This document shows, piece after piece, positions 32,885 to 35,800 of a stretch of 64,000 bases of DNA; the stretch's first letter is position 1; every line of letters starts with the position of its first letter. The translations under genes were made by a program, and so were the position numbers. Origin of the DNA: Amphiscolops sp. MND2022 (Eukaryota). The notes under the pieces are model-generated. The model searched no databases and was not told the origin of the DNA. It was given only the letters and a program-made list of their open reading frames with translations. The stretch lies in the NCBI GenBank assembly GCA_964187785.1, contig OZ076412.1, positions 49,724,001 to 49,788,000 on the forward strand, written 5' to 3'.

Positions 32885-35800
32885 TTAACTACCGCCAAAG
32901 TTGGCAGAGGTAATCGACGCTATTGTGACATAGACGCGATCGTGCAAAACTATTGTTATGTTGTGATCTGCAAAGTGGTCGCGTAGTGTGGCGTACCAGG
33001 CTGGGAGGAGGTTCATCGATCGCTCAGGATCATAGATGGGCAAGTGGATTCTGGTAATGTGGTTTCGATGGAGTTGAGTTATCAAATTCGTCAAACACGC
33101 ATGTAATACCTCATGTAAGAGCGGATGCTTGTTTGATGCTCTGGTACATAGAAGGAAGATTTCGTTATTCCAGGGTGCAGTTGGCGAGCGGGTTAAGCGA
33201 ATTGCGGTGCCAACTGATGGTCTTAGACGAAATATGTTTTCTTGACCGTATTCGCGAATGACGTAACGGATCGTAGCCGAGTAAGAGAACAAATCCGCAG
33301 GGCAGCATAATATTACGGTGCCAGGTGCCTGCAGGATATCTGTGTCGTCATAACTTATCCAAGGTAAGTAATTCGGTCTGGTTTTAGGCTGGGTTATGAG
33401 CCATTTGCCGGTGGTTCTGCTCTGATCATCGGTGGGTCGGGGTGTCAAATGCTGCAAGATTGCTTTTCGGTCTTCCCAGACGGTTCGTCGTAGAGGTCTA
33501 TCTCCCAAGTTTGTAGATGACCAATCGTGTACTATCGAGAGTGCTTCGCTAATTGTCACGGGTTTTTCTGGTGTATAAGATTGTCGATCCAGGAAGTGTA
33601 TCTTTGCCTGCCGGCAAAAGACTACCGCTATTAATTGTAGCCAATGTTGGCTTAGGAACTTTCCACGATAAATATCGGCCATGTGGAAACAAAGCGTGTT
33701 CTCAGGTTCGGTTACCGTACGTAAGCTTTCTAAGCACATCAGTAGAGTTGTTGGGGATACCAATGTCGTTGCGTCTAGAGAGGTGACAAGTAGCCACCAT
33801 CCATTGGTGGGCTGATATATGTCTCCCGGCGGGGAGGCAATGTGATATTTCTCCCACAGTTGGTGTGCAGTGATACAGCGAATCATCTCCGAGCTACTAT
33901 CCTCTTTTGCTAGCTCGCCGAACGTCATCGATGGTGGCAAAGGCGGTATGATGGCATGTAGGGTGAATTCTAGACCGCCCCGATGGGGAGGTGTCCATTC
34001 TTTGAATCGGTAAGTCGGGCAGTCGGAGGGAGATGTCGCGTGCATTGCTTTGAGTGTTTCTTCCAGCGGTGGTATCGCTTCTCGTTCCACACTAGTGAAA
34101 GTTTTTTCTACCGTGATGATCAAATGGTGCACTAGCGGGGGTGTCTCCACCTTTTCTCGTTGGGCTTGCACGGCTAAGATTTCATGTTGTGGGTGACAAT
34201 GTGTCCTAGCCATAAAGAGATCCCTGGCAGGGACTACTGCTCCCCGGGCCAATCGGTTGTCCGGTGAATGGCGAGTCAGATGCTTGACGCAACTACAGTT
34301 GCGGGAACCACAGGTTCCACACTTGTAACGTGGTGCTCTGTTAGCTCGCAGTTGATATCGTGATGTTCGCGATGATGGTCTTGGTTCTGAATCCTGGACA
34401 TCTGGTGGTTGTTGGCTTTCGGGTATTTCTGGTAGAGTCATTGCTCGGTCTAGTTTTCGAGGGGGTGCACGAGTGCTCGTTCTTGCCCTGGGGCCTCTTC
34501 TAGGTCGTGCGGTTTGGGTTCGTGACGATGTTGTGGTTCTAATAGATGGTATAGCGCGGGGTTTTCCTCTACCCGGTGGTCGGCCTCGAGGCCGTCCTCT
34601 ACTATTCGTGGTATAGGGTTGCGTTGAGCAATGGCTTGGACTGCGATGGGTTGTCTCTTCCTCATTCTCAGTTTCTGACTTTGGTTTATTTTCTATCGGG
34701 TCGATCGGGTTCTCTAGTTGGGGGCCAAACAAGGGAAAGTTACTCAGGGTGTCTGTTAGGGACGGATTGGATAGTAGGGGGGCTGAGGTCCCTGAGGGTG
34801 ATGGTATCAGACTTGTAGGTACCGCCGGCTGAATTTCCTCCTGGTCGGAGTACAGTGGTTCCAGGTCGTCTAAGTCGGGGAACACTACTGGCGGTGGTGG
34901 GCTCTGAATCGGTGGTTCATTTTCCTCTGTCTCGGAATCTGAATTGGAGGGGTACCCGAAGTGGCTGAATCTTCTTCTGGGTATTCCTTGTTCGAGTGCC
35001 GTTTGGGTACGAGTCTGAATGGTACGAGGTGGAATTGATCCTGTCGGTTCCATTTCGAAGGATGCTTCCGGAAGTTGTTCCGGTAGGAAAGAGTCTTGGG
35101 AGATGTCGGACGCTATCTCCTCATTGCTTTCTTCTACGTACGGATCAGCAATAATGGCTACGTTTTGATTCGGCCCAAAGGGCTGGTGTGCGGCCCAGTC
35201 CCAAGGGGCAGGCACATGCTTTTTCAATCTTTCGTAGTGGACCTTTTGGCCAGTGTCTAGTACGTATAATCGTCCGTCCTGCAACACGTCGGTTACCTTG
35301 TGGGGTCCGCGCCATGCGCGAATCAGCTTGCGGGTGCCACCCTTGGGTATGATATGGCAGAACACCCACACCGCATCGCCTACAGCATGCGCTTTGGCCT
35401 TCAGGTGGCGGTCAAACTTCAGCTTCTGCCGTAGCTGTGCTTGGTGTGTATTTCTTCTGACGAGTTCATGGATTTCTTGCTGTCTGGCTAGAAGATGTTC
35501 TACGAATTCTTCTTTGGAATCGAATCCTCGGGCAGCAAATTCTGGGTAGATGAATGACAGGGGAATTGATTTCTCGGCTCCGTGTTGGAGCATATAGGGA
35601 GAGAATCCAGTGGTTGCGTGTCTAGTTGAATTGTACGCACCGAGGATTCCATCAATATGCTCATCCCAATCCTGCATTCGTCGAGAAGTGTAGACTCTCA
35701 GCAGTGTGAGTAACGTTCGGTTCTGCCTTTCCACGAGTCCATTCCCTCGAGGATGCGCTGGAGTGGATGTCACTTTAGTGACTTGCGAGGCTTTCATTAG

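Follow-up and report, generated by a model that had tools for sequence, protein, structure and literature searches.

Two degenerate TARG1-type macrodomains are predicted in tandem at the C-terminus of a Ty3/Gypsy Pol protein

Macro domains in retroelements are already known. Basta et al. 2009 reportedly described macro-domain ORFs in fish epsilon-like endogenous retroviruses, and annotations in databases place domains resembling TARG1 within the Gypsy Pol proteins of some insects. The macro folds of the coronavirus SARS-unique domain have been repurposed for other ligands and, to our knowledge, do not bind ADP-ribose. According to PMC4977317, the fish epsilon-like endogenous retroviruses carry their macro-domain ORFs as additional ORFs within Retroviridae. 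Retrotransposons with captured reader domains, such as the chromodomain of MAGGY and PHD fusions, are likewise well known (10.1101/2021.11.30.470311) and have a chromatin-type domain at the integrase C-terminus with a reader function that is shown or intact. The Gypsy tail described here resembles the fish retroviruses in being a macro domain apparently captured by a retroelement and the chromodomain and PHD fusions in its position, but it is an in-frame, tandem, and degenerate extension of integrase, its canonical pocket is remodelled, and it has no chromodomain. Our literature search, outside of which lie most subscription journals and the Repbase reports, returned no report of a tandem, in-frame pseudo-TARG1 tail on a Gypsy integrase, and by term search the word "macro" is absent from PMC6431247, PMC9289625, and PMC13524379, which deal with extra domains or envelope-carrying elements, and of PMC5408684.

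The chemistry of TARG1 (OARD1, C6orf130) has been assigned to individual residues: K84 is the nucleophile, D125 resolves the intermediate, a GxG loop serves the pyrophosphate, and D20 the adenine (PMC6397177, PMC5179494). The published TARG1 pattern is TKx(30,35)Px[IL]GxGxD (PMC6397177). A G123E exchange abolished ADP-ribose binding and DNA-damage recruitment of TARG1, while RNA binding via surface patches persisted (PMC5928194). In DarG, G119E, the equivalent of TARG1 G123E, crippled the protein, and both G119E and K80A (K80 corresponds to TARG1 K84) were described as inactivating or impairing (PMC5179494). SCO6735, in turn, is active despite the absence of K84 and D125 (PMC9411070).

The window analyzed here, a 64-kb stretch of Amphiscolops sp. 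MND2022 DNA, contains at positions 27165-45920 an 18.8-kb Ty3/Gypsy LTR element with the domain order PR-RT-RNase H-IN between two LTRs (Table 1). Ty3 Gag-Pol was the best PDB relative of the pol ORF (E 1e-101). Inspection by eye of the flanks at 27165 and 45920 revealed no matching 4-6 bp that could represent a target-site duplication. About 2.4 kb (42750-45212) separates the 5′ LTR from gag; a tRNA-primer-like TGG motif, presumably resembling tRNA-Arg, lies ~16 bases inside the LTR end, and Rfam gave no match in this interval. In the window copy the reading frame changes between gag and pol, at a point inside the protease region (39169-39307). As all 43 of the 43 relatives longer than 2900 aa have gag and pol in one ORF, the window copy is probably broken at this site. 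For ORF3, neither a Pfam match nor a credible PDB sequence match nor an Atlas match was obtained. ORF3 was also considered as an envelope fusion glycoprotein and has a single hydrophobic 19-mer and 9 Cys in its 1403 residues; its middle part shows what we take to be a resemblance to SGNH esterases, without backing in the Pfam, PDB, and Atlas searches.

Table 1. Features of the Ty3/Gypsy element and of its Pol protein, in window coordinates
Feature	Position	Strand	Description
5′ LTR	45212..45920	(-)	TG...CA ends; 99.2% identity between the two LTRs (725 aligned bases)
3′ LTR	27165..27874	(-)	Preceded by a purine-rich tract, on the element's strand
gag ORF	39169..42750	(-)	1193 aa stop to stop; CCHC knuckle (zf-CCHC E 9e-7); end just past the protease DTG motif
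pol ORF	32885..39307	(-)	2140 aa; remainder of protease, RT, RNase H, integrase, long tail
RT + RNase H	37022..38098	(-)	Pol 404-762; Pfam RVT_1 E 3.6e-36, RT_RNaseH_2 E 8e-27
Integrase	35213..36259	(-)	H2C2 zinc domain, core, and a third module that we presume to be GPY/F-like (GPH at 35308); Pfam Integrase_H2C2 E 1.5e-16, rve E 4e-8
Two adjoining RGRP motifs	34577..34600	(-)	Taken by us to be AT-hook-like; within the low-complexity linker
Cys-x2-Cys-x4-Cys-x-Cys motif	34289..34321	(-)	Upstream of the macrodomains; kept in 60/60 long Pols
Macrodomain unit 1	33584..33937	(-)	Pol 1791-1908; predicted TARG1-type fold lacking part of loop 1/helix 1, the catalytic Lys, and GxG
Linker	33380..33583	(-)	68 aa; two predicted helices (H159-174, H183-193; pLDDT 66-81)
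Macrodomain unit 2	32936..33379	(-)	Pol 1977-2124; predicted TARG1-type fold
ORF3	28460..32671	(-)	1403 aa stop to stop, downstream of pol

Between integrase and the 400-aa tail lie ~240 low-complexity residues that include the two RGRP motifs and the Cys4 motif. All 60 of the 60 long Pol proteins (window copy counted) have RGRP in their C-terminal 700 residues, and the Cys4 motif is probably a zinc site. A Pfam scan of Pol found no Chromo family at E ≤ 0.1. The stretch directly before unit 1 (33940-34030) is conserved but of low confidence in the unit-1 model (pLDDT 37-74).

The original prediction had proposed two tandem "TARG1/Poa1-like" macrodomains at the Pol C-terminus. All 11 peptides quoted in its support were located in one minus-strand frame, that of the pol ORF (39307-32885), with the unit 2 motifs at 33340-32945 and those of unit 1 at 33796-33590. 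As a single sequence the tail matched 0 Pfam families and 0 PDB sequences, and BLASTP detected no likeness between unit 1 and unit 2 (best E 4.9). An AlphaFold model of the tail built from 39 sequences (mean pLDDT 64) showed two confident alpha/beta domains joined with low confidence. In Foldseek searches with unit 2, TARG1 entries held ranks 1 to 8 (best E 1e-9, TM(target) 0.81), followed by DarG. VIA-align gave the same order, with a Z of 17.6 for TARG1 (rmsd 3.0, 141 residues aligned), 16.4 for DarG, and 12.6 for Poa1p. Because unit 2 occupied the whole match list of the tail model, unit 1 was folded separately, from 68 sequences (pLDDT 81, pTM 0.71). TARG1 was again at ranks 1 to 8 in Foldseek (best E 2.3e-5) and best in VIA-align (Z 12.4, rmsd 2.9, 117 residues aligned), with four macrodomains trailing it within ~2 Z units; DarG was at Z 11.3 and Poa1p at 10.6. 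For both units the top structural ranks were thus occupied by macro-fold chains. The predicted structures confirmed that two macrodomains missed by Pfam end the pol ORF and that TARG1 is the best structural match of both; the TARG1 part of the proposed assignment stood, and for either unit TARG1 and DarG were closer than Poa1p. Unit 1 had been described as a repeat of the C-terminal half of the fold beginning at 33980. Its start is nearer 33937, and its alignment spans TARG1 residues 11-152, so it is a complete but shortened macrodomain; compared with unit 2 it has 15 fewer residues in the loop 1/helix 1 region.

Sequence profiles pointed in the same direction for unit 2. A search of 177,635 PDB sequences with the unit-2 profile gave only 5 matches at E ≤ 10, all of them to TARG1 (E 0.034-0.045), and a second unit-2 alignment gave 7 matches, of which the best 5 were to TARG1, with the register unchanged (E 0.15-0.19). 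No PDB match was obtained with the unit-1 profile or with the whole-tail profile. Pfam returned only single weak matches for the 39 tail members, PHROGs and NCBIfam no macro family for 55 unit-2 members, and tblastn of unit 2 against phage genomes one chance-level match (E 0.4). In the Atlas, phage clusters without names scored 0.90-0.91 and a Macro cluster 0.89, which we take as a lead only. Numerous viral macrodomains matched in BFVD, with identities of 9-20%, but none stood out as the donor, and the base composition of both units is like that of the rest of the element and therefore uninformative on origin.

With TARG1 (4J5Q, 4J5S, 2LGR), the sole PDB sequence match of the first unit-2 profile, unit 2 also shares the length of loop 3. 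Unlike TARG1, the units are only 13-18% identical to it, stand in tandem, are fused to a retrotransposon Pol, and have K84, G121, G123, and D125 replaced. DarG and SCO6735/Bt_1257, the ALC1-like class, provide the next-best folds (2AFC with Z 13.5 and 11.8 for units 2 and 1, respectively), but this class comprises DNA de-ADP-ribosylases with an intact glycine loop, and no toxin partner lies beside the units. Poa1p, for which fold scores only were compared, shares the macro fold and ranks clearly under TARG1 for unit 2.

Relatives were collected in several searches: 59 long proteins, each carrying integrase domains, from 1929 candidates; 130 shorter proteins among 1560 (best 120 of 130 used); 358 representatives at E ≤ 0.001 (best 150 of 358 used); and 241 proteins at E ≤ 10 with the unit-2 profile (best 120 of 241 used). 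Among the matches listed, no relative carried a name. Also among these matches, unit 1 was present in 112 of the 112 proteins in which unit 2 is preceded by 200 aa or more. Pol ended 0-6 residues past the tail match in 56 of the 60 long Pols, and the other four were without unit 2. When the unit-1 and unit-2 profiles were compared on trimmed, non-overlapping columns, hhalign aligned 70 columns with a probability of 66.9% (E 5e-5); in the controls the probability did not exceed 1.7% when columns were shuffled (60 shuffles) and was 1.9% with a reversed profile. The register of unit 1 follows from this alignment together with anchor residues. On this sequence evidence, the two units are a tandem duplication. 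Both have, unlike TARG1, an Asp at the G121 position (46/54 in unit 1, 53/58 in unit 2) and an Arg at the L124 position (42/53 and 51/55), from which we infer that the domain was already modified when it was duplicated.

The distances within the two units were correlated (rho 0.84, 0 of 2000 permutations; 16 non-redundant of 107 two-unit proteins), and the main splits of the unit-1 and unit-2 trees of these 16 proteins were common to both, with one unstable long-branch row. In a comparison with P0060, the full-length relative at the greatest distance, identity is 47% and 45% for the units, 32% and 28% for the spacers flanking them, and 83% for RT; the range for RT and integrase (70-83%) is well above that of the units. 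Among closer relatives, conservation is similar for the units (67-73%) and the linker (69-71%). The correlation between RT and tail distances over 53 Pols (rho 0.37, with only 0.49 for RT versus IN) is uninformative, because most of these Pols belong to one subfamily.

We determined residue frequencies for unit 2 from 61 non-redundant rows (<80% identity) drawn from 192 with at least 70% cover; the loop register derives from weak HMM alignments (E 0.03-0.2) and structural-alignment end points, not from residue-level superposition. The published TARG1 pattern occurred in 0 of 377 proteins among the matches listed. At the K84 site unit 2 has an Arg (R2056; R in 58/61, K in 1/61) and unit 1 mostly Ser or Ala (47/53). 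The G121 site of unit 2 is D2093, the G123 site is E2095 (Glu in 50 of the 57 non-redundant relatives with a residue there), and the D125 site is S2097 (S or P in 48/55); the positions of DarG K80 and G119 are accordingly R and E. Loop 1 (G43 and I44 in TARG1) is almost glycine-free in both units, with at most 1-2 Gly per column, and GxG was found in either loop in 0 of 61 unit-2 rows and 0 of 54 unit-1 rows, in line with the earlier claim that both glycine loops are lost. What unit 2 has kept are the equivalents of T83, P118, F140, and the adenine-binding D20, the latter as D1990 (D in 45/52, placed by motif and alignment end points); D20 is not kept in unit 1. P0224, a divergent relative forming one of 13 groups at <60% identity, has a Lys at the K84 site of unit 2 and a loop that is still acidic. 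With its natural G123E equivalent, the family would thus have fixed a binding-dead state.

As the original prediction had held, canonical catalysis looks unlikely for either unit, K84 and D125 being replaced and both glycine loops gone; we say unlikely and not impossible because SCO6735 is active without K84 and D125. Its residues at the defining positions place the tail outside the TARG1 enzyme family; it would combine a TARG1 fold with a role like that of a repurposed integrase-tail domain. The proposed tethering to ADP-ribosylated chromatin was weakened, since it needs ADP-ribose binding, which G123E abolishes in TARG1; in addition to the Glu of unit 2, unit 1 is without part of loop 1.

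Eleven cleft positions, chosen from the cited papers, were more conserved in unit 2 than the whole domain (0.76 versus 0.55, permutation p 0.001 in a test that ignores relatedness), whereas in unit 1 the same positions were not over-conserved (0.57 versus 0.54, p 0.36). The over-conserved set of unit 2 includes adenine-pocket positions (equivalents of D20, F22, P118, Y150, and L152). Ten charged residues and His383 are conserved in unit 2, six of them Arg, and by the alignment register R2056, R2096, and R2124 rim the cleft. Near-invariant non-canonical residues recur across the 13 groups at <60% identity. Conservation of the cleft above the rest of the domain suggests that unit 2 binds something, and a non-canonical ADP-ribose or adenine-nucleotide ligand is possible because the adenine-binding Asp is kept in a cleft that is both conserved and remodelled.

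Our leading explanation, to which we assign a probability of roughly 45%, is that the tail acts together with the upstream AT-hook-like and Cys4 motifs as an ADP-ribose-independent tether to nucleic acid or chromatin. It is favored because of the G123E-like block, the six conserved Arg residues of unit 2, and the upstream basic and Cys4 motifs, which all 60 of the 60 long Pols have. A Gypsy-family ancestor would have captured a macrodomain of the TARG1/DarG class, which was remodelled, then duplicated in tandem, and has been retained as a pair at the Pol end since. Judged from the residues, neither copy would retain TARG1 chemistry. Unit 1 has decayed further and probably serves as a spacer or packing partner, and unit 2 has retained a conserved cleft with Arg and acidic residues along its rim. 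AT-hook-like motifs, Cys4 site, and the two pseudo-macrodomains may then serve integrase as an arm for binding nucleic acid, be it element RNA, cDNA, or target chromatin, and fill the slot of the chromodomain in chromoviruses.

Several points argue against a nucleic-acid tether. Neither unit is net basic (K+R versus D+E, 9 versus 12 and 14 versus 13), which fits badly with non-specific binding; the over-conserved cleft of unit 2 fits a specific small ligand; and the tail may not stay on integrase after protease processing. A specific ligand could be ADP-ribose or an adenine nucleotide, read by unit 2 through a rebuilt pocket in which Arg side chains replace the glycine amides, so that integrase is steered to PARylated chromatin or DNA breaks. 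We regard this as doubtful: the D20 equivalent (45/52), the over-conserved cleft, and the three Arg residues at its rim are all as such a reader would have them, but both glycines of the pyrophosphate loop have become Asp and Glu, G123E alone kills binding in TARG1 (PMC5928194), loop 1 is nearly without Gly, and the cleft of unit 1 is not conserved. That unit 2 is instead an active ADP-ribosylhydrolase with a new chemistry built on R2056, D2093, and E2095, stripping element cDNA, RNA, or proteins as a counter-defence, seems quite unlikely. Replaced catalytic residues have a precedent within the class in SCO6735 (PMC9411070), TARG1-class enzymes take ADP-ribose off DNA (PMC8501950), and the cleft is conserved, but K84 and D125 are missing, the pyrophosphate loop is acidic, and K80A and G119E inactivate or impair DarG (PMC5179494). 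Put more generally, a working reader or eraser of ADP-ribose with a new Arg/Asp/Glu active site, carried on integrase itself and used as a countermeasure to, or homing device for, ADP-ribosylation of nucleic acid or chromatin by the host, is rather improbable; if true, it would connect PARP signalling with the way in which transposons counter host defences or choose their targets.

The pair might also bind a host protein involved in silencing, translation, or repair, acting as its decoy or antagonist, and possibly after release from integrase. Neutral net charge and intermediate conservation agree with this, and a macrodomain-Paip1 complex (6yxj) was among the lower fold matches (Z 7.9-8.0). 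This match belongs to the coronavirus SARS-unique domain (8UFM, 6YXJ), which like the tail consists of tandem degenerate macro folds in a viral-type polyprotein, in complex with Paip1 according to the entry title, but which scores lower structurally (Z ~8) and likely has an independent origin. As the conserved residues of the tail are charged and clustered on the old ligand cleft, and no partner is known, we consider a host-protein module unlikely. The idea of a neutral relic in slow decay could draw on a conservation far below that of RT or integrase in the comparison with P0060, but a tail that 56 of 60 long Pols keep in frame, a pair present in all 112 informative relatives among the matches listed, and near-invariant non-canonical residues across the 13 groups make it very improbable.

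The family has kept a tandem TARG1-type fold on integrase across subfamilies less than 60% identical, and unit 2 combines a natural equivalent of the standard binding-dead laboratory mutant with a conserved cleft. The tail offers a small, foldable test case for the roles macrodomains take on after loss of ADP-ribose chemistry and for the question of whether ADP-ribosylation restricts or guides retrotransposons, and extra domains fixed in a retrotransposon hint at host pressures on the element.

No second copy of the macro tail was found elsewhere in the 64-kb window. A broken Bel/Pao LTR element with LTRs that are 97% alike occupies 8208-16560; within it, positions 12785-12897 form a near-perfect palindrome of 113 bp, and a run of six tandem units, each of 23 bp, lies at 16077-16217. 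At 58001-64000 lies a third, fragmented LTR element with RT, integrase, and protease pieces and repeats that are 94% alike; it is without a macro tail. Long inverted repeats outside the elements are located at 50250-50392 and 1164-1377.
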